In this document: piece after piece, positions 6,218 to 56,292 of the stretch
Numbering within the stretch: position 1 is the first letter of the stretch
Layout of the letters: every line of letters starts with the position of its first letter
Assembly: GCA_963666565.1 (NCBI GenBank)
Contig: OY762911.1
Coordinates: 32,001-96,000 of the forward strand
DNA: 64,000 nucleotides
Reading direction: 5' to 3'
DNA from: Thermoanaerobaculia bacterium
Lineage (GTDB): Bacteria > Acidobacteriota > Thermoanaerobaculia > Multivoradales > Multivoraceae
Notes under the pieces: generated by a model
Databases searched by the model: none
Seen by the model: only the letters and a program-made list of their open reading frames with translations
Told to the model about the DNA's origin: nothing
Program-made: the position numbers and the translations under genes

Positions 6218-6449
6218 GTCGATCCGACTCCGCCCGCGCTGCACAGCGCGACGCGTCGGAGTCGTGAAAAGAAAGGTGAGCGCCCCTCGTCGGGGTGACC
6301 GCGACGACCCGTAGCGGTCAGCTCAAGCTGACGCATCCCGGTCGTCCAACGGCGCCGCCGGCGATTCGGTGCGATCCCACCGCCGCGGAATCCGCGGCCT
6401 GCGCTACGGCACTCTTCGACTCGGACTGAACGACCCAGGAACCACAACC
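6214..6449 (+). promoter_or_regulatory. Structured intergenic leader RNA, copy 1
   Basis: Hairpins 6225-6264 and 6317-6332; 6214-6222 is complementary to 6416-6424; same elements in copy 2. Confidence 0.55.
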
Positions 6450-9044
6450 ATGATCGCCAACCGCACAAAGGCCTCGAACTCCTATCCGCGGCGCCGGCAC
6501 CACCGGCGCCAGGCGGCGACGGGCGCCGTTCTCTGCGCCCTCGCCCTTCTTCTCATTCCAGCGACGGCCGGCGCCCAGGAAACCGGCTCCGTCGCCGGGT
6601 CCGTCGAAACGCACGGCGAGAGAATCGTGCTCGCCGTGGCGCGCATCCCCGCGCTCGGCATCAGCGCCGCGGTGTCCACGGACGGCACGTTCCGCTTCGA
6701 CGAAGTGCCGGCCGGCACGTATCTCGTCGTCGTCGACATTCCCGCCTTCGGCACGGCCAGCGAGACGGTCACCGTGGCGGGCGGCGACGAGGTGGATCTC
6801 CAGCTCGAAATGCGTCACGGAACGCACTTCGACGAGGTCGTGGTCACCGCGACCGGCGACCTGCGCCGCGCCTCCGAACTGGCGAATCCCGTCTCCGTGC
6901 TGTCCGGCACGGACCTCCAGTTGCGCCTCGGCGCCACGCTGGGCGAAACGCTGGAGAACGAACCCGGCGTGTACTCGACGGCGTTCACCCCCGGCGCCGG
7001 CCGGCCGATCATCCGCGGCCTGACGGGCGCACGTGTGCGCGTCATGGAAGGCGGACTCGACACCGGCGACGCCTCCACCGTCAGTGCGGACCACGCGGTG
7101 ACCTTCGAACCGGCGCACGCCGAGCAGATCGAGGTTCTGCGCGGCCCCGCCACGCTCCGCTTCGGGTCGGAGGCCATCGGCGGCGCCGTCAACATCGTCG
7201 ACGGCCGGATTCCGACCGAGAAGCCCGTCAGCGCGCTGAAGGGCACGATCGACCTTCGCGGCGGCACCAACGCCGACGAGCGGATGGGCGCCATCCATCT
7301 CGACGGCGGCGGCGGCGAATGGGCTTGGCACCTGGGCGCCGTCAGCCGGGAGACCGATCCGTACGAGATCCCCGGCTACGCCCGCGTCGAGGAGGAGCAC
7401 GACGATCACGACGAGGACCATGACGAAGACCACGACGAGGATCACGACGAGGACGAGGATCACGACGAGGACGAGGACCACGACGACGAGGACCATGACG
7501 AAGATCACGACGAGGATGACCACGACGAACACGAAGAAGAGAACACCTTCGGGATGGTCCCGAACACGGATCTGAAGACGGAGAGCGGCCGGTTCGGCTT
7601 CACCCGCTTCTTCGGCGATCGCGGCTCGATCGGCGTTTCGGTCAGCGGCTTCGACACGAACTACGGGATCCCGCCTGGCGGGCACGCTCATCACGAGCAC
7701 GACGATCACGACGACGAGGACCACGACGAGGACCACGACGACGAGGACCACGACGACGAAGATCACGACGACGAAGACCACGACGACGAAGACCACGACG
7801 ACGAAGACCACGACGACGAAGACCACGACGACGAAGACCACGACGACGAAGATCACGACGACCACGAGGAAGAGGAAGTCCCGATCCGCATCGACATGCA
7901 GCAGCGCCGCGTCGACCTGCGCGCCGAGGCCCTGCCGGCGTCCGGCGCCTTTCAGAAGATCGAGGTCCGGATGGCGGGAACCGACTACGAGCACGTCGAG
8001 CTCGAAGGTCCCAACGTCGGCACGACCTTCTTCAACGAGTACTTCGAGACCCGGCTCGAGATGTTCCAGCGCGAGCGCGGCCGCAGTCGCGGCTCCGTCG
8101 GTCTCCAGTACTCGGACCGCAACCTGGAGGCCTTCGGCGAGGAGGCCTTCGTTCCTCCGACGCAGTCCGAGGGATTGGCGGTCTTCACCTCCCAGGAAGT
8201 CGAGGCCGGCGCCGTTCGCTGGCAGTTCGGGGCCCGCTTCGAGCAACTCGATCAGAACCCGGCGACTACCAGGGATACCTCGCACGACGGGGTCTCCGCC
8301 TCCGCCGGCCTCGTCTGGGACGCGGCCGACGACTGGGTGCTCGGCGTGTCGCTGGCTCGTTCGGTCCGCCTTCCGTCAGCGGAAGAGCTCTTCTCGGACG
8401 GCGTGCATGTCGCCACGCAGAGCTACGAGGTCGGCGACCCGAACCTCGACAACGAGGTCGGCACCGGCATCGACGTGTCGCTGCGCAAGACGGAGGGACC
8501 GCTGACCGGCGAACTGACGATCTTCCGCCAGAGCTTCAGCGACTTCATCTACCAGGCCTTCACCGGCGAAGAGGAGGACGGTTTCTCGGTGCTCCAGCAC
8601 AGCCAGGCCGACGCCACCACCGAAGGCGCCGAACTCCGGCTCCGGCTCGAGCTGCTCGACCGCAACGACCATCACCTGCACCTCCAGGCGATCGCCGACA
8701 CCGTCGACGCCGAGCTGGACGCGGGTGGCAACCTGCCGCGGATTCCGCCAATGAGCTTCGGCGCCGGCCTCCACTACCACGGCCACCATTGGCGCGCCGC
8801 GGTGGAGGGTCGCTGGTTCGACGACCAGAACGACGTCGCGGAACTGGAGACCCCGACCGAGGGCTACACTCTGGTGAACGCCCACGTCGGGCGGCGCTTC
8901 ATCGTCGGCAACCAGATCCTCGACGTGCTCCTGCGGGGCCGCAACCTGACGGACGAGGAGGCGCGCGTGCATACCTCGTTCCTGAAGAACTTCGCGGCCC
9001 TGCCCGGCAGGGACATCACCCTGTCGGCCCGGTTCTGGTTCTGA
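6450..9044 (+). CDS. TonB-dependent receptor, ZnuD-like, with His/Asp-rich loops
   Basis: Signal peptide, carboxypeptidase-regulatory-like N-domain, EVVVTAT, TLGETL...PG, RPIIRG, IEVLRGPATLRFG, LPRIPP, C-terminal ARFWF. Confidence 0.93.
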   Translation: MIANRTKASNSYPRRRHHRRQAATGAVLCALALLLIPATAGAQETGSVAGSVETHGERIVLAVARIPALGISAAVSTDGTFRFDEVPAGTYLVVVDIPAFGTASETVTVAGGDEVDLQLEMRHGTHFDEVVVTATGDLRRASELANPVSVLSGTDLQLRLGATLGETLENEPGVYSTAFTPGAGRPIIRGLTGARVRVMEGGLDTGDASTVSADHAVTFEPAHAEQIEVLRGPATLRFGSEAIGGAVNIVDGRIPTEKPVSALKGTIDLRGGTNADERMGAIHLDGGGGEWAWHLGAVSRETDPYEIPGYARVEEEHDDHDEDHDEDHDEDHDEDEDHDEDEDHDDEDHDEDHDEDDHDEHEEENTFGMVPNTDLKTESGRFGFTRFFGDRGSIGVSVSGFDTNYGIPPGGHAHHEHDDHDDEDHDEDHDDEDHDDEDHDDEDHDDEDHDDEDHDDEDHDDEDHDDEDHDDHEEEEVPIRIDMQQRRVDLRAEALPASGAFQKIEVRMAGTDYEHVELEGPNVGTTFFNEYFETRLEMFQRERGRSRGSVGLQYSDRNLEAFGEEAFVPPTQSEGLAVFTSQEVEAGAVRWQFGARFEQLDQNPATTRDTSHDGVSASAGLVWDAADDWVLGVSLARSVRLPSAEELFSDGVHVATQSYEVGDPNLDNEVGTGIDVSLRKTEGPLTGELTIFRQSFSDFIYQAFTGEEEDGFSVLQHSQADATTEGAELRLRLELLDRNDHHLHLQAIADTVDAELDAGGNLPRIPPMSFGAGLHYHGHHWRAAVEGRWFDDQNDVAELETPTEGYTLVNAHVGRRFIVGNQILDVLLRGRNLTDEEARVHTSFLKNFAALPGRDITLSARFWF
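7398..7535 (+). repeat. In-frame His/Asp/Glu tandem repeat, loop 1
   Basis: Degenerate CACGACGAGGAC-type units encoding HDED. Confidence 0.85.
7698..7868 (+). repeat. In-frame 15-bp tandem repeat encoding (HDDED)n, loop 2
   Basis: GACCACGACGACGAA/G repeated about 10 times. Confidence 0.9.
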
Positions 9045-12506: not shown

Positions 12507-12801
12507 GTCGAACAGCGGCGCCGACCCGCGCGGCAACGCGCGGCGTCGGAGCCTCCAGAAAGCAAACCAGGCGTCGCCCGCCCCACTTCGGGGCGATGGC
12601 GACGACGCCATCGCGGTCAGCCGTTGCTGACCCGAACGGAGTCGCAGCATCGCGCGACCGACGAGTTCGGCACGCCGCAAGCGCTGCGAATCCTCAGCCA
12701 GCGCCACACAAGCTCCCTTGACCCGGAGGGCCTTCGATCCGAAGGGCCTTCGACTCGGAGGGACCCTCGACTCGGACCGAACCATGCAGGAACTCAAGAC
12801 A
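12503..12801 (+). promoter_or_regulatory. Structured intergenic leader RNA, copy 2
   Basis: Hairpins 12521-12549 (GCAA loop) and 12615-12632; 12503-12512 is complementary to 12749-12758 and 12767-12775. Confidence 0.55.
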
Positions 12802-15348
12802 ATGCTCGCTACCTTCACCAAGCTCTCGAACTCCAATCCACGGCGCCGGCCCCGCTGGCGCCAAGCAGCGACGGGCGCCGCTCTCTGCGCCCTTGCCCTC
12901 ATCCTCCCCCCGCCGCCGGCCAACGGTCAGGCGACGGGATCCGTCGCCGGAACGGTCACGAGCCCCGGCGAAGCCGGCATCTCGCTCGCCGTCGCCCGTC
13001 TCTCCGAGTTGTCCCTCAGCGCCCCGGTGGCCGCGGACGGGACGTTTCGGTTCGACGCCGTGCCTCCCGGCACGTATCTCCTGGTCGTCGACATTCCGTC
13101 GGTCGGCCTGACCAGCCAGCCGGTCACCGTCTCGGCCGGCCAGCAGACGACCCTCGAACTGGAACACGATCACTTCACCCACTTCGACGAGATCGTCGTC
13201 ACCGGCTCCGGCGATCTCCGGAACGAGTCCGAGCTGCCGAACGCGATCTCCGTGCTGGGCGGCGCCGACCTGCAACTGCGCCTGGGGGCGACGCTGGGCG
13301 AGACCCTGGCGGGGGAACCGGGCCTGTCCTCCACCGCGTTCGTTCCGGGAGCGGCGCGGCCGGTCATCCGCGGCCTTTCGAGCGCGCGCGTTCGTGTGCT
13401 CAACGGCGGCATGGGAACCGGCGACGTTTCCGTGGAGAGCGCCGACCACGCCGTGACGACCGACCCGATCCTGGCGGAGCAGGTCGAAGTGCTGAGAGGT
13501 CCGGCCACGCTCCGCTACGGCTCGGGCGCCATCGGCGGCGCCGTGAACGTCGTCGACGGTCGCATTCCAGCGAACCGGGCGGCAAGGACCGTTGGCGGCA
13601 GGATCGACCTGGTCGGCGGTTCGGTGGCCGACGAGGAGACGGGCGCGGTCCAACTCAACGGAGGCGGCGGCGAATGGGCCTGGCACATCGGGGCCGTCAG
13701 CCGGAAGACCGATCCGTACGAGATCCCCGGCTACGCCCGCCTCGAGGAGGAGCACGACGACCACGACGACCACGGCCACGAGGACGAGGACCACGAAAAC
13801 GACGACCACGACGACCACGAAGAGGAGAACAGCTTCGGCATCGTCCCGAACACGGACCTGAGGACCGAAAGCGGCCGGGTCGGCGTCACGCGCTTCTTCG
13901 GCAACCGCGGTTTCCTGGGCGTCTCGTTCAGCGGTTTCAGCACCGACTACGGCATTCCGCCAGGCGCACACAGCCACGCAGGGCACGATCACGGCGGAGA
14001 CGGCCACGACGAGGACGGGGATCACCACGACGAGGACGGGGATCACCACGACGAGGACGAGGACCATCACGACGAGGATGACGACCACCACGGCGACGAC
14101 GAGGACCACCACGACGAGGATGACGACCACCACGACGAGGATGACGACCACCACGACGAAGAGGAAGAGCACCATGACGACGGCGACATTCGCCTCGACA
14201 TGAAGCAGCAGCGCTTCGACCTCAGAGCCAGCGTCAACCTGCTCGCACCCGCCTTCGAGAGGCTCGAACTGCAAACGTCCGGAACGGACTACGAGCACGT
14301 CGAGTTCGAAAGCGGCCACACCGGCGTCCTCTACACGAACGACCTCTTCGAGACCCGGGTCGAGATGTTCCAACGCGAGCGGGGCGCCAGCCGGGGCAGC
14401 GTCGGCTTGCAGTACGTGGACCGCGATCTCGCCGCGGTCGGCGCCGAGGCCTTCATCCCCCCGACCCGCTCGAACACCTGGGCGGCTTTCACCTCCCAGG
14501 AGATTCAGAGGGGATCGGTTCGCTGGCAGTTCGGCGCCCGCTTCGAACAGGCCGAGCACGACCCGGCAAACGGACCGGCCTGGTCCGGCGACGGCGTTTC
14601 CGCCTCGACCGGCATCGTCTGGACGGCCGGAGACGCGTGGAACCTCGGCGTGTCGGCCTCGCGCTCAGTTCGCCTTCCCAGTCCGGGCGAGCTGTTCTCC
14701 CACGGTGCTCACATACCCACCCGGACCTTCGACATCGGCGATCCCGACCTGGACGCGGAAGTCGGCGCCGGCCTGGACATCACGCTTCGCAGGGAGGAGG
14801 GCGCCGTCCAGGGCAAGTTGACCCTGTTCCGGCAGGACTTCCAGGACTTCATCTACCACGCGTTCACCGGCACGGAGCTCTCTGGCTTCCCGGTCACCGT
14901 CTACAGTCAGGCCGACGCGACGATGACCGGCGCGGAGCTCCACGCGCGGATAGAGCTCGCGGAGTGGAACGGGCACGACCTGCACATGGAGATCGTGGGC
15001 GACACGGTCGACGCGGAACTGGACGAAGGCGGCAATCTGCCGAGAATTCCGCCGCTGAGCCTGGGCGCCGGCGTCCACTACCACGGCCACGACTGGCGGG
15101 CAGCGGTCGAGTGGCGGTGGGTCGACGACCAGAACGATGTCGCCGAGCAGGAGACGCCGACCGACGGCTACGCCATGCTGAACGCGCACATCGGCCGGCG
15201 CTTTACGGCGAACGACCAGATCTTCGACCTGCTCCTGCGGGGGCGGAACCTGACCGACGAGGAAGCCCGGGTGCACACGTCCCTGCTCAAGACGTTCGCG
15301 CCCCTGCCCGGGAGGGACATCACGCTGTCGGCGCGGTTCTGGTTCTGA
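12802..15348 (+). CDS. TonB-dependent receptor, ZnuD-like, paralog 2
   Basis: Colinear with 6450-9044; VEVLRGPATLRYG, His/Asp loops, ARFWF end; start chosen by alignment. Confidence 0.93.
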   Translation: MLATFTKLSNSNPRRRPRWRQAATGAALCALALILPPPPANGQATGSVAGTVTSPGEAGISLAVARLSELSLSAPVAADGTFRFDAVPPGTYLLVVDIPSVGLTSQPVTVSAGQQTTLELEHDHFTHFDEIVVTGSGDLRNESELPNAISVLGGADLQLRLGATLGETLAGEPGLSSTAFVPGAARPVIRGLSSARVRVLNGGMGTGDVSVESADHAVTTDPILAEQVEVLRGPATLRYGSGAIGGAVNVVDGRIPANRAARTVGGRIDLVGGSVADEETGAVQLNGGGGEWAWHIGAVSRKTDPYEIPGYARLEEEHDDHDDHGHEDEDHENDDHDDHEEENSFGIVPNTDLRTESGRVGVTRFFGNRGFLGVSFSGFSTDYGIPPGAHSHAGHDHGGDGHDEDGDHHDEDGDHHDEDEDHHDEDDDHHGDDEDHHDEDDDHHDEDDDHHDEEEEHHDDGDIRLDMKQQRFDLRASVNLLAPAFERLELQTSGTDYEHVEFESGHTGVLYTNDLFETRVEMFQRERGASRGSVGLQYVDRDLAAVGAEAFIPPTRSNTWAAFTSQEIQRGSVRWQFGARFEQAEHDPANGPAWSGDGVSASTGIVWTAGDAWNLGVSASRSVRLPSPGELFSHGAHIPTRTFDIGDPDLDAEVGAGLDITLRREEGAVQGKLTLFRQDFQDFIYHAFTGTELSGFPVTVYSQADATMTGAELHARIELAEWNGHDLHMEIVGDTVDAELDEGGNLPRIPPLSLGAGVHYHGHDWRAAVEWRWVDDQNDVAEQETPTDGYAMLNAHIGRRFTANDQIFDLLLRGRNLTDEEARVHTSLLKTFAPLPGRDITLSARFWF
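13984..14180 (+). repeat. In-frame His/Asp repeat (HHDEDDD-type, about 21-bp units)
   Basis: CACCACGACGAGGATGACGAC-like units. Confidence 0.85.
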
Positions 15349-15404
15349 CGGGTATACTCCGCGGCTCGACAGCGGTCGGCACCGCGGCCACGGCCCGAAT
15401 CCGC

Positions 15405-15481
15405 GTCCCCATCGTCTAGCCAGGTCAGGACTCCAGCCTTTCAAGCTGGCAACACGGGTTCGAATCCCGTTGGGGACGCCA
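15405..15481 (+). tRNA. tRNA-Glu (anticodon TTC)
   Basis: Acceptor GTCCCCA/TGGGGAC, anticodon arm CCAGC-CTTTCAA-GCTGG, T arm ACGGG-TTCGAAT-CCCGT, encoded CCA; TATACT at 15353-15358 upstream. Confidence 0.96.
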
Positions 15482-15492
15482 TCGCGCCGGAT

Positions 15493-15961
15493 GGCGCGAT
15501 GGCGGCCACAACGGGTTCGGTCGACGCTGCTCGCCTACGGCTCGCCGCTCTGGAACGTATCCCGTTGGGGACGAAGCCCTGCCGGTCGGCGCGATGGCGG
15601 CCACAACGGGTTCGGTCGACGCTGCTCGCCTACGGCTCGCCGCTCTGGAACGTATCCCGTTGGGGACGAAGCCCTGCCGGTCGGCGCGATGGCGGCCACA
15701 ACGGGTTCGGTCGACGCTGCTCGCCTGCGGCTCGCCGCTCTGGAACGAATCCCGTTCAACGCGAAACGTCAACACGCCGGATCGGCGCGATGGCGGCCAC
15801 AACGGGTTCGGTCGACGCTGCTCGCCTCCGGCTCGCCGCTCTGGAACGAATCCCGAGCGAGACGTCAACCCGCCGACTGGCGCGATGGCGGCCACAACGG
15901 GTTCGGTCGACGCTGCTCGCCTCCGGCTCGCCGCTCTGGAACGTATCCCGTTGGGGACGCC
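15493..15961 (+). repeat. Five tandem tRNA-3'-end-derived repeats (period 95-101 bp)
   Basis: Core GGCGCGATGGCGGCCACAACGGGTTCGGTCGACGCTGCTCGCCTnCGGCTCGCCGCTCTGGAACGwATCCCG starts at 15493, 15588, 15683, 15784 and 15879. Confidence 0.93.
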
Positions 15962-15988
15962 GGGCGGGCGGTTGGTACCCTGAACGGG

Positions 15989-17962
15989 ATGAAGGTGATC
16001 GCGAACTCGGGGGTTCGGCGTCGGGCTGGGCGGCGAGCCCTCGTTGCGTGGGCCGGCGTGCTGGTGCTGGGGTCGACGCTGGCGGCGCAGGAGGGCGAGT
16101 GGCCGTACTTCGGCGGTGACCGCACCTTCAAGCGCTACTCGCCGCTCGACCGGATCGACGCCTCGAACGTCGGCGATCTGCGCATCGTGTGGCGGCGGCC
16201 GGGTCTGGAACCGGAGCTCAGGGAGGAGTTCCCCGAGTTGCGGCCGGGCAACAACCTGCGATCGACGCCGATCATGGTCGAAGGTCGCCTCTTCCTGACC
16301 AACCTCGTCGGCCTGCTGCGCGCCGTCGACCCGGCGAGCGGCGAGACCCTGTGGGCTCAGGCGCCGTTCGAGCCGACGATCGAGGAGGCACGCGGCTTGA
16401 GCCCACGAGGCGTCGACCTCTGGACCGGCGGCGAGCGGCAACGACTGTTCCTCGCACGCGGCAACTACCTGTACTCGGTCGACGCCTCGAGCGGCGAGCT
16501 CGACGGCGACTTCGGCGACCAGGGACGCGTCAGCCTCCGCCTCCCGGGACCGCTTGCCGGCGATTTCACCTGGACCGCCGGGCCGATCGTCGTGGGCGAC
16601 GTCGTCGTGACGGCCGGATACACCGGAGGCGCCGGCGACGGCGGCAGCAAGAGAGAAGCGACGCCGGAGGACGTGCGCGGCTACGACGTCCGCACGGGCC
16701 GCCGGCTGTGGACGTTCCACGTCGTGCCGCGGCCGGGCGAGCCGGGCAACGAGACCTGGGGCGACGGCTCGTGGGAGTACTCGGGCGACCTCGGGTCGTG
16801 GTGCTGCCTGTCGGCCGACGAGGAACTCGGCCACGTCTACGTCCAGCTCTCGGCCCCGACCGCGGCGTACTACGGCGGCCACCGGCCCGGCGACAACCTG
16901 TATTCCAACTCGCTCGTGGCGCTGGACGCCGGGACGGGCGAGCGAGTCTGGCACTTTCAGATGGTGCGCCACGACGTCTGGGAGTGGGACACGGTCGGTC
17001 CGGCGACCCTCGGCGAGATCACGGTCGACGGGAGGCGGATCGACGCCGTCATGCAGCCCTCGAAGACCGGCTTCCTCTACGTCTTCGATCGCCGTACCGG
17101 GGAGCCGGTGTGGCCGATCGAGGAGAGGGCCGTGCCCGGCTCACGGGTCCCCGGGGAGCAACTGTCGCCGACCCAGCCGTTCCCGACGAAGCCGCCGCCC
17201 TTCGACCGGCAGGGATTCGTGGAGGACGACCTGATCGACTTCACGCCGGAGCTCCGGGCACGCGCCCTGGAACTCGTCAAGCCCTTCCGTCTCGGGCCGA
17301 TGTTCACGCCGCCCGGCCTGATGGACGACGAGCAGGGGAAGATCGGCACCCTGACGAACCCGGGATGGTGGGGAACGGGGAACTGGCATACCGGCGCCTT
17401 CGATCCCGAGACCGGCGTGTACTACGCCGTGTCCCACACCTGGCCGAGCGTGTACTCCCTGACACAGCCGGAAGGCAGCGACGCGACACTCGGCTACGTG
17501 GTCGGCTACGACGGTCCCGACGTACCGACCCTCGACGGACTCCCGATCGTGAAGCCACCCTACGGGCGAATCACCGCAATCGACATGCATCGCGGCGAGC
17601 ACGTGTGGATGGCGGCCAACGGCGACGGGCCTCGAGACCATCCCCTGCTCGAAGGCCTCGACGCGCCGCCCCTGGGAGTCGCCGGGCGGCCGGCGCCGCT
17701 GGTGACGAAGACGCTGCTGTTCATCGGTGAAGGCAGCGACGCCATCCCCGGCATCGAGGGGGAAGAAGGCCGCTACTGGGGCAGGAAGTTCCGCGCCTAC
17801 GACAAGGCCACGGGCGAGGTCGTGTGGGAAACGGAGCTGCCGTCCGGCACCACCGGCGCGCCGATTACCTACATGCACGAGGGTCGCCAGTTCATCGTCG
17901 TCGCGATCGGCGGCAACGAGTCCCCGGCGGAATTCGTGGCGTTTGGCCTGCCGCTGGACTGA
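15989..17962 (+). CDS. PQQ-dependent dehydrogenase (glucose/quinate-like beta-propeller), secreted
   Basis: Signal peptide, RYSPLDRID, RGYDVRTG, WHFQMVRHDVWEWD, PTQPFPTKPPPF, KPPYGRITAID. Confidence 0.9.
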   Translation: MKVIANSGVRRRAGRRALVAWAGVLVLGSTLAAQEGEWPYFGGDRTFKRYSPLDRIDASNVGDLRIVWRRPGLEPELREEFPELRPGNNLRSTPIMVEGRLFLTNLVGLLRAVDPASGETLWAQAPFEPTIEEARGLSPRGVDLWTGGERQRLFLARGNYLYSVDASSGELDGDFGDQGRVSLRLPGPLAGDFTWTAGPIVVGDVVVTAGYTGGAGDGGSKREATPEDVRGYDVRTGRRLWTFHVVPRPGEPGNETWGDGSWEYSGDLGSWCCLSADEELGHVYVQLSAPTAAYYGGHRPGDNLYSNSLVALDAGTGERVWHFQMVRHDVWEWDTVGPATLGEITVDGRRIDAVMQPSKTGFLYVFDRRTGEPVWPIEERAVPGSRVPGEQLSPTQPFPTKPPPFDRQGFVEDDLIDFTPELRARALELVKPFRLGPMFTPPGLMDDEQGKIGTLTNPGWWGTGNWHTGAFDPETGVYYAVSHTWPSVYSLTQPEGSDATLGYVVGYDGPDVPTLDGLPIVKPPYGRITAIDMHRGEHVWMAANGDGPRDHPLLEGLDAPPLGVAGRPAPLVTKTLLFIGEGSDAIPGIEGEEGRYWGRKFRAYDKATGEVVWETELPSGTTGAPITYMHEGRQFIVVAIGGNESPAEFVAFGLPLD

Positions 17963-25364: not shown

Positions 25365-26621
25365 TCAACCGAGCGGGAAGAGTCGGCGTCGCACCACGAG
25401 ACGTCCGGGCTTGCGGAACTCGTGGCCGTAGGGCGGTAGCGAAGAGGCTCGATCGAGTTCGACGCCGGGCCACCGCTTGAGCAGGGTCCGCAGCGCGGAG
25501 CGGGTTTCGGCGCGGGCGAGTTGGGCGCCCAGGCAGAAGTGGTTGCCGAGGCCGAAGGCCAGGTGCTTGCGGACGTTGGTCCGGCCCGGCTTGAAGCGCT
25601 CGGGGTCTTCGAACACCACCGGGTCCCGGTTGGCGCCGCCGACCATGCACTGCACGGTCTCGCCGGCGGCGATCTCCGCGCCGCCCATGCGGACCGCCGT
25701 CGTCGTGTGCCGGGTGAGCGTCTGCACCGCCGGGTCGTAGCGCAGCGACTCCTCCATCACGTCCTCGACCGCGGCCAGGAAGGCCGCTTCCCCCTCGTTT
25801 CGGGAATCGAGCACGGCCTCCACGAGCCCCGGCTCGTTCAGCAGGTAGTGGAGAGCGTTGCCGATCATCGACTCCGTCGTCTCGATGCCGCCGAAGAGGA
25901 CGATCAGGAGATTCGCCAGCGTCTCGGAGCGGGGGAGCGTTCCGCTTGGCCCGGAGAGGACTTCGATCAGCGTGCCGCCATCCGCCCCACCGGCCGGCTG
26001 GTGCCCGTCCAGCTTCTCCGCCAGGTACTCGCGCATCGCGGCCGCGGCCTCCTGGCCGGCGCGATGAAGCTCGGCGTCTCCCTCGAAGTTCGCCAGCGAC
26101 CGGGCGAACACCTCGTACCAGGCGCGCACCCGCGGCAGGTCGCCGGACGGCAGGCCGACCACGATCCCCATCGTCTCCAGGGCGATCGGCGCGGCGTAGT
26201 CCGCCATCAGGTCGACCTCGACCGCCCCACCGGCGGCCGCCCGTTCGGCGGCCTCGAGGAGTTCCGCGCAGAGCCGGTCGACCCGCGGCTGCCAGACCTC
26301 CCGCGACGCCTTGCCGGCGAAGGGAGCGAGGCACGCCTGCTTGTGACGCTTCTGTTCCTCGCCCTCGACCGACAGCATCTGGCGGCCGAAGGTGGCCTGG
26401 ATGAGGGACTTCGGCGAGTCGTTGGTGAAGATCTCGGGATTGCGGAGCACGGACACCGCGTCGTCATAACCGGCGACCACCCACATGCCCAGGTTCGGCG
26501 CCCACACCGCGGCGCCCTCCGACCGCAGCTCCGCCAGGTGCGGATAGGGATCGACCGCCAGGTCCTCGAGCCGGAGCGAAGCGGCGACGGCGGACACTGG
26601 CGCTCGGCTCTGCCCGGTCAC
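25365..26621 (-). CDS. Cytochrome P450
   Basis: GGIETT I-helix, ESLR (ExxR), ANRDP, HLAFGLGNHFCLG; GTG start overlaps the upstream stop. Confidence 0.93.
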   Translation of the reverse strand: MTGQSRAPVSAVAASLRLEDLAVDPYPHLAELRSEGAAVWAPNLGMWVVAGYDDAVSVLRNPEIFTNDSPKSLIQATFGRQMLSVEGEEQKRHKQACLAPFAGKASREVWQPRVDRLCAELLEAAERAAAGGAVEVDLMADYAAPIALETMGIVVGLPSGDLPRVRAWYEVFARSLANFEGDAELHRAGQEAAAAMREYLAEKLDGHQPAGGADGGTLIEVLSGPSGTLPRSETLANLLIVLFGGIETTESMIGNALHYLLNEPGLVEAVLDSRNEGEAAFLAAVEDVMEESLRYDPAVQTLTRHTTTAVRMGGAEIAAGETVQCMVGGANRDPVVFEDPERFKPGRTNVRKHLAFGLGNHFCLGAQLARAETRSALRTLLKRWPGVELDRASSLPPYGHEFRKPGRLVVRRRLFPLG

Positions 26622-29059
26622 GGCTGCGGGAGGCTGTAGCCGGAGGGTGGCTCCGCTCCGAGCAGGTGCCTGACGAAGTAGTCCCAGCGCCGGCGAATGA
26701 AGTACGGCTCCTGGGTATAGAAGTGATCGCGATTCGGCAGGAGCAGCAGGTCGAAGTCCCGGTTGGCGTCGATCAGCGCGTCGATCAGGGTGACCGTCGA
26801 GGCCGGCAGGCTGTTCTCGTCGTGCTCGCCGTAGACGATCAGCAGCTTGCCCTGGAGTCTCGACGCGAGCGCCGCGTGCGGGGTGAGATTGACCGGCCGG
26901 GCGGCGGCGTCCGGCGCGAACCGGCCGCCGTCCTCGTACTCCGGCCAGCCCGTCCACTTGACGAACGGCGGATAGAGGTAGCGGTAGTCGTACGGCCCCG
27001 CGGACGACACGGCGACCTTGTAGACGTCCGGGTAGCGGAGCATGGCGAGCGCCGAGGAGTAGCCGCCCCAGGAGTGGCCGGTGATGCCGATCCGCTCCAT
27101 GTCGAGCCACGCGAAACGCTCGCCGAGCTGCTCGAGCGCGGCGACGTGATCCTCGAGCGCGAACTCGTCGTGCTTCTTCCACATGACGTCGTGGAACGCC
27201 TTGGAGCGCCAGGGCGTGCCCCTCGCGTCGATCGTGACGACGGCGAACCCGAGGGCGGTGAAGGTCGAGATGTCGCCCTGCCCTCCGATCCGTTCGACCC
27301 CCGCCGCACTGGCGAAGCTGCGTGGGACGACGTTGGTTTGCGGCCCGCCGTAGATGTGCTCGATCACCGGGTACTTCCGGTCTTCCTCGAAGCTCTTCGG
27401 CCGCCAGAGCACGCCGTACAGGTCCGTCTCGCCGTCCGCCGCCTTGACCGAGAAGGGCAGCGGCGGCTTGTAGCCTCGGGCGAAGAGCTCGCCGGCGTCG
27501 GCCCGCTCCAGGGTTGCTACGACCGAGCCGTCGCTCCGGCGAAGCCGCGACACGGGAGGACTGTCGAGGGTCGACGAGTTCGAGACGAAGTAGCGTCCGC
27601 TCGGCGCGAACGTCGAGGCGGCGCCGATCAGGGCCGGGGCGGCGACGGTGACCGCGTGATCGGCCGGCTCGGGGGTCAGGAGCTCGACCTCGGCGTCGCC
27701 CTCGAGCGGCACCCGGTAGACATGCCGCCAGTACGGGTTCCGCCCCGGCTCGCGCCCGCCGGCCGTGAAGTAGACAAAGCCGCCGCCTTCGCTCTCGACG
27801 ACGGCCACGATGTCGTGGACCACCCATTCGCCGCGCGTGAGTTGCCGGACATCGCCGCCGCCTTCCAGGTCCACCACGTAGAGATGTCCCCAGCCGTCCC
27901 GCTGCGAGAAGGTGATCGCCTGCCCGCCGCCCGCCAGCACGCGGACGTTGGCGCCCATCGACCGGTAGAGGCTGTGATTCAGGTCGAGGAAAGAGCCCGC
28001 CTCCTCCTCGAAGACGGTCGCGGTGCGCCCGGAGGCGAGCTCGTACCGGACCAGATCGAAGCGGCTCGCGTCGGGAGCGAGGCAGAGGAAGAAGATCCGG
28101 CGCGAGTCGGGCGTCCAGATCGCCTGCGGCGGCGTGGCGCCCAGCTCTCCGAAACAGTCGTCGGGAAGCGGCACTTGGCGGCTCGCACCGCTGGCGACAT
28201 CGAAGACGAACATCGGGAACCGCGGGATCTCCCGGTCGCCGATCAGGGCGACCCGTTTCTCCAGCGTCCGCGGCCGGGCGCTGCCGTCGGCCGGCAGCAG
28301 GTCCAGGTAGGGGTACGCGCCGACCTTCCTCTCGTCCGTCCGGGAAATGAGCAGCTTCGCCGAGTCAGGCGACCACGAGGCGCCGGTCAACGGTCCTTCG
28401 AGGCCCTGCCGCAGAAGCTGGAGCTTCGCGCTCCAGCCCGGCAGCGCGCCGTAGCCGAAGTGCTCCTTGCCGTCCTGCGAGAGCCGCCGCTCGGCGCCGT
28501 CGTCCAGGTCGCGCAGCCAGACGTCGTGGCTTCGGGCGAAGGCGGCAACGGACCGGTCCGGCGCCGGGAGTTGAAGCGGATCGGTGACGAAGCCCGGCAG
28601 GGCCTCGCAGGTGTAGGTTTCCAGGTCGCAGCGGGCGGCCGAGGTCGCGGTCCGGACCACCGCGCCGCCCGCGCCACCGTCGAGTGCGAAGTCGAGGGAA
28701 ACGACGCCGAGGTCCAGCGGATCGTGCGCGATGTCGGTCGCCTCCGACAGCGCCTCGGCCAGGCGCTCCTGGTCGAATGCCGGGCGCTTCCCGCCCGTGG
28801 CGCCGTCGACGATCACGATCTCGGTGCCCCGGTCCGTGTCGCGCTCGTACCAGAACTCGTCGCGGTCGCCGATCCAGTGGGGGACGACTTCGACGTTCCT
28901 GACCGTGCCCTGGACGTTCCGGGAGAGCAGGCTGGCGGCTTGGTCGTAGGCGGCTCGGGTCACCCGATCCGGAGCGTGGGGCTCCTGTGCCGCGGCTGCG
29001 GGCGGAGCGGCCAGAAGAGGCAGCGCCCACATCAAGGTCGCCGCTGCGCGGCGTGTCAT
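26618..29059 (-). CDS. S9B dipeptidyl peptidase IV-like, secreted
   Basis: Signal peptide, YGGPQ, IDARG, GHSWGG, GEHDEN, H in PNRDH. Confidence 0.92.
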   Translation of the reverse strand: MTRRAAATLMWALPLLAAPPAAAAQEPHAPDRVTRAAYDQAASLLSRNVQGTVRNVEVVPHWIGDRDEFWYERDTDRGTEIVIVDGATGGKRPAFDQERLAEALSEATDIAHDPLDLGVVSLDFALDGGAGGAVVRTATSAARCDLETYTCEALPGFVTDPLQLPAPDRSVAAFARSHDVWLRDLDDGAERRLSQDGKEHFGYGALPGWSAKLQLLRQGLEGPLTGASWSPDSAKLLISRTDERKVGAYPYLDLLPADGSARPRTLEKRVALIGDREIPRFPMFVFDVASGASRQVPLPDDCFGELGATPPQAIWTPDSRRIFFLCLAPDASRFDLVRYELASGRTATVFEEEAGSFLDLNHSLYRSMGANVRVLAGGGQAITFSQRDGWGHLYVVDLEGGGDVRQLTRGEWVVHDIVAVVESEGGGFVYFTAGGREPGRNPYWRHVYRVPLEGDAEVELLTPEPADHAVTVAAPALIGAASTFAPSGRYFVSNSSTLDSPPVSRLRRSDGSVVATLERADAGELFARGYKPPLPFSVKAADGETDLYGVLWRPKSFEEDRKYPVIEHIYGGPQTNVVPRSFASAAGVERIGGQGDISTFTALGFAVVTIDARGTPWRSKAFHDVMWKKHDEFALEDHVAALEQLGERFAWLDMERIGITGHSWGGYSSALAMLRYPDVYKVAVSSAGPYDYRYLYPPFVKWTGWPEYEDGGRFAPDAAARPVNLTPHAALASRLQGKLLIVYGEHDENSLPASTVTLIDALIDANRDFDLLLLPNRDHFYTQEPYFIRRRWDYFVRHLLGAEPPSGYSLPQP

Positions 29060-29190
29060 TTCCGGAAGCCGGCGGGAACCCGGGTGGCGCGATCCCGCGC
29101 CACCCGTGACCCGGTCCGTGCGCCCGTCAGCGGGCGCACGGACGACACGCCGACGCACCCAGTGTGTGACGCTCAACTTGCCGGCCACGA

Positions 29191-30651
29191 TCAGCCGCTA
29201 CGGCGCATCGCGAAGACGCCATTCAGGTAGTGCGTGGCGCGGCCGTTGCCGTCGTCTCCCCAGAACGCCACGTCCCAGCCGCGGTTGCCGCCCATCGCCG
29301 GGTCGCGCGGCAGGAACCGGTCGCTTCCGAGCGGAATCAGCTCCGACTTGAGCACGCCGCCGCCCAGCGACCGCGCCATCAGCCGGTCGCCGTCGGCGAA
29401 GAACGAGAAGCGACTGCCCACCGCCTCGAACTGCCCGACGTAGCGCTCGAGGTCGACCTTCACCGGCGTCACGGAGTCCGGCGTGGGGGTTTCCGGCTTG
29501 TCGATGCCGAAGACCTCCGGGAAGAGGGTGTCGAAGACCCGGTCGGCGAGCGGGTAACCCTGGCTCGGCACGTTCGAGATCGTCGCCGCGGCGACGCCCT
29601 TGCTCGGGCACCAGAGCAGCAGGGACGAGCCGCCGCTGTTCGTGCCGCTGTGGCCGTAGATCACCTCACCGCCCCAGCGCTTCCAGTAGGGCCCGGGGCA
29701 CCACTTCTGGGCGATGACCCGGGCCGGCATGTCGATCTCGGGCGTGTGCATCGCCTCGACGGCCTCCCCGGAGAGCACCTGCCGGCCCTCGGCCGACTGT
29801 CCACCGCGCAGGAACAGGGCCGCGAACCGCACCAGGTCGCCGGCGCTGCAGCACAGGGTCGCACCCGCCGGCGCCATGCTGCGCGGCAGACCCCAGAACG
29901 GCACCCGCCGGCCTTCGGGAGTGGCCGGCGTCTGCGAGTAGCCGAGGGCCACCGGATGGTAGAGCAGGTCCTCCGGGAAGTTCGCGGAGTGCTCGAGCCC
30001 GAGCGGCTCGAGGATCCGTTCGGCGAGCAGGGTCTCCCAGTTCTTCCCCATCACCCGCTGGGCCGCGAGCCCGGCTACGCAGGTGCCCGCGTTCGAGTAG
30101 CCATACGCCGTGCCGGGCTCGAAGATCCCGGGAATCCCGGCAAGTGAAGCGACGTACCGGCCGAGGGCGTCGTCGCCGCGCCCATGATCCGTGTACGGTC
30201 CGTTGTCGAGTCCCGACGACATCGAGAGCAGTTGACGGAGCGTCATGTCCACCGGCGGCTGGTCGCTCGTCAGTGGCGCGCCGTCGAGGTAGCTCCCGAC
30301 GGGTTCGTCGAGGTCGAGCGTTCCCTCATCGACCAGCGCCAACACCACGGCGGCGTTGAAGACCTTCGTCGTCGATCCGATCTGGAACAGCGTGTCGGGC
30401 GCGACCGCCAGGTCGCGTTCACGGACCGCGAGGCCGGTCGCGACCTCGTGGACCGCCTCGCCGTCGAACACCGCGAGCTGGGCGCCGACGATGCCGAGGC
30501 TGCGAGCGGACTCGTCGAGGAGCTGCTGGAGGACGGCCGGGTCGACCGCGACCTCCGGCGCGGCCGCGACCAGTCCGAAACCCCGCGCCTGCGAGACGAT
30601 CGGCATTGCCGCGACGGCCGCGCCGGCTTTCAGGAAAGAGCGTCGGTTCAT
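29191..30651 (-). CDS. Serine hydrolase (beta-lactamase/class C-like), Tat-exported
   Basis: NRRSFLK, FQIGSTTK, YGYSN, GHSG. Confidence 0.9.
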   Translation of the reverse strand: MNRRSFLKAGAAVAAMPIVSQARGFGLVAAAPEVAVDPAVLQQLLDESARSLGIVGAQLAVFDGEAVHEVATGLAVRERDLAVAPDTLFQIGSTTKVFNAAVVLALVDEGTLDLDEPVGSYLDGAPLTSDQPPVDMTLRQLLSMSSGLDNGPYTDHGRGDDALGRYVASLAGIPGIFEPGTAYGYSNAGTCVAGLAAQRVMGKNWETLLAERILEPLGLEHSANFPEDLLYHPVALGYSQTPATPEGRRVPFWGLPRSMAPAGATLCCSAGDLVRFAALFLRGGQSAEGRQVLSGEAVEAMHTPEIDMPARVIAQKWCPGPYWKRWGGEVIYGHSGTNSGGSSLLLWCPSKGVAAATISNVPSQGYPLADRVFDTLFPEVFGIDKPETPTPDSVTPVKVDLERYVGQFEAVGSRFSFFADGDRLMARSLGGGVLKSELIPLGSDRFLPRDPAMGGNRGWDVAFWGDDGNGRATHYLNGVFAMRRSG

Positions 30652-30655
30652 CGGG

Positions 30656-31405
30656 TCAACCCCTGCCCATGAAAGGCATCTGGTTCGCCATCACCGTCAG
30701 GAAAGGCACGTTCGCGTCGAGCAAAAGCGCCGCCATGTAGCGCACCGCGTCGACGACGGCGCGCACGTCGATCGTGGGTTCCGGCTTCGTGGAGCCGTCG
30801 GGCTGGGCCGCGCCCTCGGACATCCGGGCGGTCATTCGCGTCAGGGCGTTGCCGATGTCGATCTGTCCGCAGGCGATGTTGAATCTCCGGCCGTCCAGCG
30901 AGGTCGACCGCGTGAGCCCGGTGATCGCGTGCTTCGTCGCGGTGTAGGGGGCGGAGTTGGGGCGCGGCACGTGTGCCGAGATGGAACCGTTGTTGATGAT
31001 GCGTCCGCCCTGGGGGTCCTGTTCCTTCATCAGCCTGACGGCCCGTTGCGTGCAGAGAAAGGCGCCGGTCAGGTTGACCCCGACCACCCGGTTCCACTGT
31101 TCGAGCGTCAGGTCTTCGATCGGCACGGGCGGCGCGCCGGTGCCGGCGTTGTTGAACAGCAGGTCCAGTCGGCCGAACGCGCTCGCCAGGCGGTCGAACA
31201 CCGCCTGGACGCCCTCCACGGTGCCGATGTCCGCGGCTACTGTCGAGACCGTCCCGGGATCACGCGCGCCGCTCTTCGTTTCGACCAGCCGATCTTCACG
31301 GCGGCCCGCGATGAGCACGTGGTAGCCGTCCTCGACCAATCCGTGCGTGACGGCCCGCCCGATTCCGCTGCCGCCGCCGGTGACGATCGCGACTTTCTCC
31401 GCCAA
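30656..31405 (-). CDS. SDR family oxidoreductase
   Basis: [21 protein letters not shown]. Confidence 0.93.
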
Positions 31406-31541
31406 GCCCGTGCTCCCCGTTCCGCGAACGCAGCATACTACGCTCGGTCAGAGGAGAGGACGACGGTCAGGCGTCGCCCGTTGTAGGCTGGCTCGACGCC
31501 GCCTCGCCCGAACTGGTCATCGACCTTTAGAAACGAAAACA

Positions 31542-34150: not shown

Positions 34151-34636
34151 ATGGCGAGACGAGAGCAGAGACGTTGGGGTGGCCCGGAGCTCCCGGCCCC
34201 GGGGGGTGAGGAGCGGAGCGACGAGGCCCCCGGGGCCGGCGCGTCGCCCGCGGGGGGTGTTCCCGACCCGGAGGTCGTGGCGAAGCCGACCAGACGGCAG
34301 TTCACGGCGGAGTACCGTCTGCGGATTCTGGAGGAGGCGGACCGATGCACGGATCGCGGCGAAGTGGGCCGGCTGCTTCGGCGAGAGGGTCTGTACAGCT
34401 CGCACTTGGCCAACTGGCGCAAGGCGCGGCGCGAGGGCGCGCTTTCCGGTCTGCGGCGGAAGAAGCGGGGCCGCAAGCCGACCGAGGCCAACCCTCTGGC
34501 GCCGAAGGTGAAGCGGCTGGAGGCCAAGGTGAAGCGGCTGGAGAGGGAGCTCGCCGCCGCCCACACGATCCTGGACGTGCAGGGAAAAGTTGCAGGGCTG
34601 CTGGGATTCAGCCTCGAAGACGGGAAGGACTGCTGA
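34151..34636 (+). CDS. IS3 transposase OrfA
   Basis: RRQFTAEYRLRIL, LLRREGLYSSHLANWR; AGGAGG RBS; GGGAAAA slippery site near 34582. Confidence 0.9.
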   Translation: MARREQRRWGGPELPAPGGEERSDEAPGAGASPAGGVPDPEVVAKPTRRQFTAEYRLRILEEADRCTDRGEVGRLLRREGLYSSHLANWRKARREGALSGLRRKKRGRKPTEANPLAPKVKRLEAKVKRLERELAAAHTILDVQGKVAGLLGFSLEDGKDC

Positions 34637-35634
34637 TGGCGGCCCGGTCCCTGGCAAGCAAGGTCGGCGTCGCGCCGGCGTGCCGGGCGCTGGGCGTGTC
34701 GCGATCGACGTTCTACCGTAGGGCGAGGCCCGCTCCCGGGCGCCAGCTGCCCCGACCCGCGCCCGCCCGGGCGCTGAGCGAGATCGAGCGGGAGCGGGTC
34801 CAGGCGACGCTCGCGTCTCCCCGGTTCGTGGATCGCTCGCCGGCGGAGGTGGTGGCGACGCTGCTGGACGAGGGCCGGTACCTGTGCTCGGAACGCACCA
34901 TGTACCGCATCCTGGGCGCGAACGGGGAGGTGAAGGACCGTCGCAACCAGCGGGTCCACCCGCCCTACGCCAAGCCGGAGTTGGTCGCCACCGCGCCCAA
35001 CCAGGTGTGGTCGTGGGACATCACCAGGCTGCTCGGCCCGCGGCCCTGGAGCTACTACTACCTCTACGTCCTGCTCGACCTTTTCAGCCGCTACGCGGTC
35101 GGCTGGATGGTTGCCGACCGCGAGAATGCCGCGCTCGCCCAGAGGCTCATCGAGGAGACCTGCCTCAAGCACGGCGTGAAACCCTCGGTGCTCACCCTGC
35201 ACTCCGACCGGGGCGCGCCCATGACCAGCCAGGGTACCGCCCAACTGCTCGCCCGCCTCGGCGTGAACCGATCCCTGGGCCGACCTCGCGTCAGCGACGA
35301 CAACCCCTTCTCCGAAGCCCAGTTCAAGACCCTGAAGTACCACCCCGGCTTTCCCGACCGCTTCCCCGACCAGGACGCGGCGACCGGCTACTGCAGGTCC
35401 TTCTTCCCCTGGTACAACACCGAGCACCGGCATGCCGGCATCGCCATGCTGACTCCGGAGACCGTCCACTACGGCCGGGCGCAAGCCGCGATCGAACAGC
35501 GCCAGCGAGCGCTGAGCGCCGCCTGGAGACGCCACCCGGAACGATTCGTCGGCGGCGAGCCGATGCACCAACCCCTGCCTCAGGCCGTCTGGATCAACAA
35601 GCCGAGCCCCGAAGCATCGGAGATGGCTCAGTAA
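34636..35634 (+). CDS. IS3 transposase OrfB (DDE integrase core)
   Basis: PNQVWSWDIT, LHSDRG, DNPFSEAQFKTLK, WYNTEHRH. Confidence 0.93.
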   Translation: MAARSLASKVGVAPACRALGVSRSTFYRRARPAPGRQLPRPAPARALSEIERERVQATLASPRFVDRSPAEVVATLLDEGRYLCSERTMYRILGANGEVKDRRNQRVHPPYAKPELVATAPNQVWSWDITRLLGPRPWSYYYLYVLLDLFSRYAVGWMVADRENAALAQRLIEETCLKHGVKPSVLTLHSDRGAPMTSQGTAQLLARLGVNRSLGRPRVSDDNPFSEAQFKTLKYHPGFPDRFPDQDAATGYCRSFFPWYNTEHRHAGIAMLTPETVHYGRAQAAIEQRQRALSAAWRRHPERFVGGEPMHQPLPQAVWINKPSPEASEMAQ

Positions 35635-36416
35635 ATCCGAGAAGCCCCTGTGTCAAACTCGTTGACAGGTTCCGTCCCGCTACGCCAACGGCAGCGAGAA
35701 CGAAGGCCCCTACGAGAACGGCAGGAAGCACGGACGCTGGATCGAGCGCGACCCGGATGGCGACGTGTCCGAAGGTTCCTACGCCGCGGGGAAACGCGAC
35801 GAACTGTGGGTCACGCGATTCGACTCAGGCGGTGCGTACGAACGGACTTTCCGAGACGGCGTTCTGGACGACTCAAGCATCCACTACACCGGCGGCGATG
35901 ACGATGAAACAGGACAATGTTCCGGAAGCGAACGTCGGCGTACCGCCATCGGGACCTACGTAAAGCCGCCCCCTGGCTATGGATCGCTTCCCGGTGACCC
36001 GCCTGCCGCGTCCCGCGCCTGCCACGAGGCATGGAACGAAGAGACTCTTCGGAATGCCGAGTGCAGAGATGGCAAAGGGAACGCGTTCTTTGTTGGCGCA
36101 GGGGGCCTCTTTCCTCCCTCCCAATGCCATCTGCACATCTACGGTCCGACGGGAACGAAACCGCACCTGTACACAATTGACAACGTCTGTGGTGCAATGG
36201 CATGCGAAACCCGCAAGGTCTGGAACGACATTGACGAGGTGTACGAAGACGAAGCCACATGTAAACTCGAGTGGGCTTGTTTAAGCGGCCATCAGTGAGG
36301 ACGGTCGCTGATCATGTGGTGCGGTGATCCGGTCTGCCGCAACGGGACCGACCAAGGACCCGACGGCCGCCGCCCATCCGACTGCTCCAGTCGAGGCACG
36401 AGAAAAGGAAACCAAC

Positions 36417-37487: not shown

Positions 37488-37497
37488 GGATAGTGCC

Positions 37498-38033
37498 GTG
37501 CATCTCGCGGTTGACCTCCGCGAGGCGGCAAGTTCGAGGCACGTCGACTCGTGGCGTGCCTCTCTATATGGACACACACTCGACGGACCGGCCATCACCG
37601 CCGCGACCCTGGATGAGGCTGGACTCGTACGTGCTACCGCCGACCGGGATGAACCGGTCCGTCCGGTAGCAACCGCGGCCTATCTGTGGCCTTGCGGGAA
37701 GAACGCGACTTGGGTGCGATGTGGTCCCATGGGTGTTCTGGACGCCACACTGTTCGGCCAAGGCGGATTGCATCAGGCGTCGGGTGTCGGAGTCGGATTT
37801 CAGTTGGCGTTAATCTCCACCGAATCAAGGCGCCATGATCGCTCGTTCGGCCTTGGCCTAGCCTACATGCGAGACTCAACCACGAACGCCTCCGAGATGA
37901 CTTCATGGCCGGGGAAATGGCACCAGACGGAGCAACAGAAGTGAAATACGCCGACACGCATTCCGACGCGATTCTGCTAGTCGTCACCTATTCCTTTGGA
38001 TGGAAGCGCTACGAAAGAGAGGCGGAACGATGA
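37498..38033 (+). pseudogene. Frameshifted hypothetical gene
   Basis: After ...GLAYMRDSTT near 37884 another frame continues ERLRDDFMAGE...ILLVVTYSFGW to TGA 38033. Confidence 0.4.
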
Positions 38034-43951: not shown

Positions 43952-43999
43952 GAAGCTGCGCCGCGGCCTCGTGAGCGACGCCTGATCACAGGAGAACCG

Positions 44000-45076: not shown

Positions 45077-45108
45077 GAGTCGAGGTCGCTGACGGAGGCG
45101 ATTCGACC

Positions 45109-45876: not shown

Positions 45877-45889
45877 CCGCCGTCGGACG

Positions 45890-47533: not shown

Positions 47534-47535
47534 TC

Positions 47536-48789: not shown

Positions 48790-48914
48790 GTTCGCACCTC
48801 CAGCGGTCCGTGGTCGATCCACTCGCCGCCGCCCGGCCCGCCGTAGACGTCGCCGAAGTCGGCGGTCTCCCGGAAGAAGACCGGGAAGGGAATGCGGCCG
48901 TAGGGCTCGATCAT
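48786..48914 (-). CDS. 42-aa hypothetical peptide coupled to the CapA gene
   Basis: MIEPYGRIPFPVFFRETADFGDVYGGPGGGEWIDHGPLEVRT; GC-biased third positions; GTGA overlap. Confidence 0.4.
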   Translation of the reverse strand: MIEPYGRIPFPVFFRETADFGDVYGGPGGGEWIDHGPLEVRT

Positions 48915-56271: not shown

Positions 56272-56292
56272 GAAGCGTCTCCCTCTCGAAGC

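Follow-up and report, generated by a model that had tools for sequence, protein, structure and literature searches.

A tandem hairpin array built on the end of a tRNA-Glu gene and resembling the E. coli RtT repeats

Introduction

The closest described counterparts of the locus treated here are the RtT repeats of the tRNA-Tyr operon of Escherichia coli, the original descriptions of which are said to be those of Rossi et al. in 1981 and of Bosl and Kersten in 1991. In E. coli K-12, the tyrT-tyrV-rttR region contains a 178-nt repeat in 3.1 copies that starts inside the 3′ end of tyrV, and its units carry an inverted copy of the T arm and acceptor of tRNA-Tyr (19/22 positions, with a score of 29 against a shuffle maximum of 21). 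The RtT model RF00391, applied to E. coli as a positive control, matched four copies with 133–138 bits, and in its consensus the element is closed by a helix between the inverted copy and a direct copy of the tRNA end that lies at its terminus. In E. coli, conservation is higher in the copies than in the intervening spacers, and the copies have fold z-scores of −1.5 to −2.5. The copy located between tyrT and tyrV (1564–1695 of that region) differs from those behind tyrV at 21–23 of about 134 positions, while the three behind tyrV differ from one another at 2–5 positions only, a homogeneity within the array like that of the locus described below.

In a passage of PMC3318445, rttR is given as one repeat unit of the tyrT operon. 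A section of a preprint (bioRxiv 10.1101/2024.07.17.603846) presents rttR as thought to be involved in processing and in the stringent response, and part of the rttR structure has covariation support according to an excerpt of PMC8250186. Citing papers likewise describe the E. coli rtT RNA as a processing product of the tRNA primary transcript. A limited literature search returned no account of such an array outside E. coli.

Here we describe an array of five tandem units, built on the 3′ end of the tRNA-Glu gene that precedes them, in the window, i.e., the whole stretch of 64 kb of DNA that was analysed. The array is real, tandem, conserved in its lineage and anchored on tRNA-Glu, and the best reading, by analogy, is that it represents a counterpart of the E. 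coli tRNA-Tyr RtT repeats in an Acidobacteriota-like bacterium.

The tRNA-Glu Gene and Its Neighbourhood

The sole tRNA called by ARAGORN in the 64-kb window is a tRNA-Glu(UUC) with an encoded CCA (Table 1). Its leader holds a −10-like TATACT (15353–15358), which on the strength of its sequence is a candidate promoter element; a sigma-70 scan around the tRNA and the array returned no full promoter site. One more match to the leader, at 59939–59959, falls within a coding frame and was dismissed as chance. Upstream of the tRNA, a TonB-dependent receptor gene has its end at 15348, and downstream the array stops 27 nt short of the ATG (15989) of a PQQ-dependent dehydrogenase gene, the start of which was placed by Pfam PQQ coverage together with a 95% identical homologue of 660 aa. 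The best match of the dehydrogenase, at 95% identity, is a protein from a MAG of the Holophagales, which lie within Acidobacteriota, and the next matches are at 76%.

The array is open in all frames. In the region from 15254 to 17962, all three plus-strand frames and the minus-strand frames are open over the tRNA and the array, and one open frame leads without a phase shift into the dehydrogenase gene. As a consequence, gene callers give false ORFs or false N-terminal extensions at this place.

Some other features of the window deserve mention in their own right. The TonB-dependent receptor genes at 6315–9044 and 12718–15348 each encode two long low-complexity stretches rich in His, Asp and Glu (of the type HDDEDHD, at 7395–7865 and 13738–14184), which arise from 12–36-nt tandem repeats (TRF) and, to judge by their residues, look like metal-binding loops. 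A PIN-domain protein, possibly a VapC-type toxin, is encoded on the minus strand at 1121–1558. The only transposase in the window is an rve-family (DDE) ORF at 34210–35631, which adjoins a stretch of lower G+C (35000–38000; 0.58–0.66) in which the ORFs have no Pfam match; this is possibly an insertion sequence or foreign DNA. At 49896–53229, an AAA_16 ATPase gene adjoins a gene for a protein with PLD-like and HATPase_c_4 domains, which itself contains a 33-nt tandem repeat in 3.1 copies (52963–53063); from its domains, the pair looks like a defence-type system. Genes for beta-lactamase-fold proteins, dipeptidases (M19), S9 peptidases, gamma-glutamyltranspeptidases and peptide transporters are unusually dense at 26621–31447, 43952–49269 and 56274–59296, and this density suggests a region that may serve peptide scavenging.

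Anatomy of the Array

The earlier note on this DNA had described five units with periods of 95, 95, 101 and 95 nt, and these were recovered by an alignment of the units; Tandem Repeats Finder reports a repeat at 15464–15959 (period 95, 5.2 copies, score 724). The units share a constant block of 72 nt, made up of a 27-nt left arm, a 38-nt core and the start of the right arm, and successive blocks are separated by spacers of 23–29 nt. The first unit begins 11 nt past the CCA, on the same strand as the tRNA (Table 1). Only two positions vary inside the block, and conservation is sharply divided between block and spacer: the blocks differ from one another at 0–2 of 72 positions and the spacers at 10–13 of 27–31 columns (Fisher P ~1e-6). 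Units 1 and 2 are identical across all 95 nt, and unit 3 has a 29-nt spacer following its shortened right arm.

Table 1. Features of the tRNA-Glu locus, with coordinates counted from the first base of the window
Feature	Coordinates	Strand	Details
Conserved leader of the tRNA gene	15352–15404	+	translation near-unchanged in 7/7 related ORFs reaching upstream
tRNA-Glu(UUC) gene, encoded CCA	15405–15481	+	ARAGORN; Rfam tRNA model, 63.3 bits; cloverleaf −28.3 kcal/mol
Predicted long hairpin, tRNA 3′ strand + CCA + trailer with left arm of unit 1	15466–15515	+	z = −5.5 and −6.8
Unit 1	15493–15573	+	left arm 15493–15519; core 15520–15557; triloop 15536–15538; right arm 15558–15573
Unit 2	15588–15668	+	left arm 15588–15614; core 15615–15652; right arm 15653–15668
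Unit 3	15683–15756	+	left arm 15683–15709; core 15710–15747; triloop G 15727; right arm shortened to AATCCCGTT
Unit 4	15784–15855	+	left arm 15784–15810; core 15811–15848; triloop C 15828; right arm shortened to AATCCCG
Unit 5	15879–15961	+	left arm 15879–15905; core 15906–15943; intact right arm 15944–15959, then CC

The left arm repeats, in inverted orientation, the 3′ strand of the T stem, the 3′ strand of the acceptor, the CCA and 8 bases of the trailer. The resemblance to the reverse complement of the tRNA 3′ end, which had been claimed before, extends over 26 of 29 positions with one gap, and none of 500 shuffles scored equally well. The core, said to be constant, occurs five times in the 64-kb window and always at the array locus (shuffles with a match: 0/100); its one variable base, which is A, A, G, C and C in units 1 to 5, lies in the middle of the apical triloop. 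It has no similarity to the tRNA or to the flanks of the tRNA. The right arm repeats, in direct orientation, the end of the T loop, the T stem and the acceptor strand up to the discriminator, and no CCA follows it in any of the copies. As had also been noticed, it is whole in units 1, 2 and 5, and in units 3 and 4 the sequence is replaced after ATCCCG.

One possible origin of the unit was considered and rejected, namely a coreless proto-unit in the leader or a duplication of the whole tRNA gene. The direct similarity on which this would depend was matched by 100 of 500 shuffles, the core is unrelated to the tRNA, and in direct orientation neither the tRNA body nor the leader resembles the unit significantly.

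Predicted Folding of the tRNA End and of the Units

At the junction of the tRNA and the array, the 3′ strand of the tRNA, the CCA and the trailer are predicted to pair with the left arm of unit 1 into a long hairpin. The earlier note had drawn a perfect 12-bp stem with a GGAT loop, which was found again (15477–15488 with 15493–15504, loop at 15489–15492), together with its imperfect extension to the T loop, and the complete hairpin is far stabler than its shuffles (Table 1). With this, every observation of the earlier note was confirmed. The free minimum-energy fold of 15405–15520 makes use of it, with −60.0 kcal/mol; when the cloverleaf is enforced, the energy is −55.3 kcal/mol, and the discriminator and CCA are still paired, in an 11-bp trailer hairpin. 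As far as these computed energies go, the tRNA-end hairpin is in competition with the cloverleaf. In the translations of the related loci described below, the codons of the stem of this hairpin are kept and the codon of the loop is variable.

A single unit is predicted to fold into a long bulged hairpin, in which the arms pair at the base, the two halves of the core pair above them and a TNC triloop forms the tip. The closing helix between the arms is present in the minimum-energy fold of three of the five units (1, 2 and 5) and absent in units 3 and 4. Taken singly, the units of the window are no stabler than shuffles (z = +1.2 to −0.9). No intrinsic terminator, i.e., a GC-rich hairpin followed by a U tract, was found in 15000–16400 (0 sites), the hairpins of the array being without a T run, and no Rfam family besides tRNA matched the locus. 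In particular, RF00391, which has a gathering score of 45 bits, gave no match in 14900–16500 at E-values up to 10.

Related Arrays Found through Spurious ORFs

Because the array is open in every frame, its translation was searched against protein collections. Nine spurious ORFs that cross related arrays were found in this way (P0123, P0125, P0126, P0127, P0130, P0132, P0135, P0136 and P0137); all come from metagenome records, and the related arrays are known through these translations alone. An exhaustive search gave 11 matches, six of which are related arrays (P0123, P0125, P0126, P0127, P0130 and P0132), the other five being four ORFs that run through array-less tRNA-Glu genes and one ankyrin false positive. 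A further search added P0135 and P0136: six of its seven matches are related arrays and the seventh is the query itself. P0137 was found as one more member through a 90% cluster.

In 7/7 related ORFs with visible upstream sequence, the array follows the same tRNA-Glu and the same leader with its TATACT. The number of left-arm motifs per ORF ranges from 1 to 7, counts that are lower bounds, as an ORF may stop within the array; left arms number 2 in P0132 and 7 in P0137, which share one 90% cluster. The downstream gene differs in at least one relative, since P0125 runs into a PF02668 dioxygenase-type domain. The unit lengths implied by the translations are 93, 95, 96, 97 and 99 nt, to which unit 3 of the window adds 101 nt. 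A coding role of the array was rejected: with lengths of 93–101 nt the units shift the frame both between and within arrays, no reading frame is conserved, and the array is therefore non-coding.

In another organism, a spurious ORF through a tRNA-Glu gene (P0134) shows the RIPLG motif, the in-frame reading of the tRNA 3′ end, for a second time 35 residues downstream and without a left-arm motif; it may represent a different kind of tRNA-end repeat.

Some of the translations allowed the DNA of the units to be rebuilt. Three identical consecutive units with a period of 95 or 97 nt are read in all three phases, and because this period is not a multiple of three, three such units fix every base. 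When the window array was used as a control, the three-frame reconstruction returned its own unit uniquely from the translation. P0137 yielded one unique 95-nt unit (95/95 codon constraints, 95 overlapping windows) and P0125 one unique 97-nt unit (97/97 codon constraints, 29 windows). For P0123, P0126, P0127, P0130, P0132 and P0135 no consistent solution was obtained, owing to units that are heterogeneous or in phase.

Compared with the two rebuilt units, the unit of the window agrees at 24/28 positions of the left arm in both cases, at 30/38 and 30/39 of the core, at 16/16 and 13/16 of the right arm, and at 8/14 and 13/14 of the spacer. Both rebuilt relatives have the extra A that a true inverted copy of the T loop would contain, and the left arm is therefore such a copy. 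A unit formed from a T arm that was split within the T loop by an insertion was rejected on this ground and because the T loop is itself palindromic. Altogether, units are 79–86% identical between arrays and identical or nearly so within each array. This near-identity within arrays combined with divergence between them, together with the variable copy number, is the pattern of a minisatellite, and it therefore speaks for concerted evolution; judged from these comparisons, the array turns over by unequal exchange.

Conservation of the Hairpin on the tRNA Strand

The hairpin had been predicted from the unit of the window alone, and all of its 19 pairs are kept in both rebuilt relatives, despite 9 and 10 substitutions. 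If substitutions are placed at random, 14.2–14.6 pairs are kept on average (P = 0.001), and with a null that preserves the substitution spectrum the figure is 15.7–15.8 (P = 0.006). At paired positions there is one compensatory exchange (G-C to C-G), and G.U arises three times; the remaining changes fall into bulges and loops. Most changes are common to the two relatives, so that the covariation amounts to about one lineage split. On the minus strand, 16/19 pairs survive in the relatives. The three G.U pairs work on the tRNA strand only, and by this reconstruction the stem of the array is preserved on that strand. The units of the rebuilt relatives are also stabler than those of the window, with −40.5 and −41.8 kcal/mol (z = −1.4 and −2.65).

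Two further relatives can be judged at the level of their peptides, by our own reading. The arm helix of the second unit of P0127 is consistent with compensation, and in the third visible unit of P0123 a change in the right arm meets a partner codon that cannot compensate, which leaves an A.C mismatch.

Discussion

The analogy with the tyrT repeats that the earlier note had touched upon holds and goes deeper than was claimed, as in the RtT units of E. coli, too, a direct copy of the tRNA end is paired with an inverted one. In both systems, tandem units start in or just past the tRNA 3′ end on the same strand and are closed by a direct copy of the T stem and acceptor that pairs with the inverted copy upstream of it; the element is conserved above its spacer in E. 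coli as in the window array, and the fold z-scores of the rebuilt relatives' units are similar to those of RtT. The two systems also differ. The window array belongs to a tRNA-Glu of an Acidobacteriota-like host, whereas RtT belongs to tRNA-Tyr in enterobacteria; its lineage has units of 93–101 nt instead of 178 nt, and the interior of the unit is one bulged hairpin instead of a multi-branch fold. Its copies carry no CCA, and its left arm copies the trailer as well, which gives the perfect 12-bp stem with the real CCA end. The array has neither sequence nor model similarity to RtT.

Other repeat systems share fewer of these properties. REP, BIME and REPIN sequences are also imperfect intergenic palindromes that form hairpins in transcripts and sometimes alternate in tandem clusters, but they are scattered over genomes as tens to hundreds of copies and linked to RAYT transposases, whereas the window array has no second site in 64 kb and no RAYT gene, and its arms are the end of the neighbouring tRNA. 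The earlier idea that the core might be an ordinary, independent REP found no support in the window, where the core has no copy beyond the locus. The att repeats of integrative elements likewise place a direct copy of the segment from T loop to acceptor downstream of a tRNA gene; here, however, the copies are 95 nt apart, each unit includes an inverted copy, and there is no island or recombinase between or near them. The leuZ 3′ETS is a functional trailer of a tRNA precursor, a single unstructured sponge segment. It resembles the present case in being RNA within a tRNA precursor that may act after processing, but it is not repeated in tandem and does not mimic the tRNA end. MIRU-type VNTRs are intergenic minisatellites with head-to-tail units of 50–100 nt and a copy number that varies among close relatives, as here, but the window units are built on the adjacent tRNA end and have a conserved hairpin fold.

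We favour the reading that the locus is an RtT-like array of tRNA-Glu trailer hairpins, specific to a lineage, co-transcribed with the tRNA, and expanding and shrinking by unequal recombination, with a rough probability of 0.55. Several results speak against it: the window units fold no better than shuffles, units 3 and 4 lack the closing helix, RF00391 gave no match, the right arms have no CCA behind them, the scans returned neither a promoter-like site nor a U-tract terminator, the covariation amounts to about one lineage split, and one change in P0123 leaves a mismatch. The competitor with the most substance, which we nevertheless regard as unlikely, is a neutral minisatellite in which a terminator-like hairpin was duplicated between direct copies of the tRNA end and multiplied by slippage, so that the RNA would be without function and the hairpin would persist through the youth of the array and the homogenisation of whole units. 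The copy number, which ranges over 1 to 7 and differs even among close relatives, the near-identity of units within arrays that have diverged from each other, the unremarkable fold energies of the window units and the decay of two of the five are all what it would lead one to expect. It has more difficulty with the 9–10 substitutions between lineages that spare 19 predicted pairs (P ~0.006), with a strand asymmetry, and with the persistence of the array in 9 other contigs, at least one of which has a different downstream gene. An assembly artefact can hardly be credited at all: units 1 and 2 are identical and their number is beyond short reads, so the number of identical units could still be mis-assembled, but the four distinct types of unit and spacer are unique anchors, the repeat as a whole is therefore no phantom, and similar arrays stand in 9 independent contigs.

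The earlier note had also thought of a MITE-like or integrase-amplified element. Such a mobile or recombinase-made origin, be it a foldback of MITE or REP type or the scars of serial integration with the arms as recognition sites, could appeal to the inverted arms of the unit, to direct repeats of the tRNA 3′ end such as integrases leave, and to the rve-family transposase ORF 19 kb away; it nonetheless came out as highly improbable. The 72-nt blocks are not framed by a target-site duplication, their flanking sequences being different, and the 64-kb window has no second copy of the arm or core outside 15455–15961. Among the 127 ORF translations of the window, Pfam searches matched none to a tyrosine recombinase, serine recombinase or Y1 transposase (RAYT) family, the direct repeats are just 95 nt apart, and 7/7 arrays with visible upstream sequence sit behind tRNA-Glu. 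A phage search with the array gave no match, and a plasmid search gave one to a Methylobacterium replicon (61 nt, 82%), which lies in an open protein frame with no tRNA nearby and was put down to chance. A scan of species-representative genomes with 22 bases of the core returned six single matches in unrelated genomes without similarity of the flanks, also taken as chance, but the pattern was over-strict, as the relatives differ inside it, and the scan is thus silent on absence. Still less probable is an array of protein-binding sites at the level of DNA, whether for a regulator of the downstream gene or of a centromere-like kind, the hairpin being incidental. The 72-nt blocks are highly conserved within the array, the core holds the heptamer GCTCGCC twice, 11 nt apart, and the array ends close ahead of the next gene, yet by our estimate chance alone would produce such a pair in 38 GC-rich bases in about 7% of cases, one heptamer copy is altered in both rebuilt relatives, the downstream gene varies among relatives, and the G.U-type changes point to pairing on one strand; the pair was accordingly dropped as a candidate protein site.

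By the comparison of arrays, the direct copies, including the real tRNA end, are substrates for unequal recombination or slippage. This alters the copy number, keeps the units of one array near-identical while arrays diverge, and holds the right arm closest to the tRNA end, which is under selection. Under the favoured reading of an RtT-like trailer array, the array would be transcribed with the tRNA as its 3′ trailer. The first hairpin would then tie up the discriminator, the CCA and the acceptor strand of the precursor, and the later ones would imitate the acceptor/T helix; they may act as modules of termination, insulation or processing, and small hairpin RNAs may be released, as with rtT RNA. 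That the first hairpin might hold the CCA end of the precursor is, on the folding models, an attractive part of the proposal. The suggestion made earlier of a cis-structured or small-RNA array has been strengthened by the hairpin conserved on the tRNA strand in the relatives and by the predicted competition of the tRNA-end hairpin with the cloverleaf.

A bolder proposal, and something of a long shot, is that trailer arrays that mimic tRNA ends form a convergent and overlooked class of bacterial RNA, of which RtT and the tRNA-Glu array would be independent inventions. The hairpins would be cut out by tRNA-processing enzymes and act as decoys, tunable by copy number, for a factor that reads the tRNA end, such as a synthetase, the Glu-tRNA reductase, a stringent-response factor or a tRNA-targeting toxin, and the first hairpin would gate the maturation of the tRNA through competition with the acceptor stem.

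These arrays, open in every frame, give rise to spurious ORFs when metagenomes are annotated, and such ORFs can be mined to find and rebuild non-coding repeats. The case also illustrates cleanly how concerted evolution can be anchored on the end of a gene under selection. For decades, RtT has stood alone as a single enterobacterial family with an unclear role. A second family of unrelated sequence that has the same architecture, at another tRNA and in a distant phylum, suggests a recurring solution over an accident, and the tRNA-Glu array offers independent material on what the role of such a trailer may be, whether termination, processing, decoy or small RNA.
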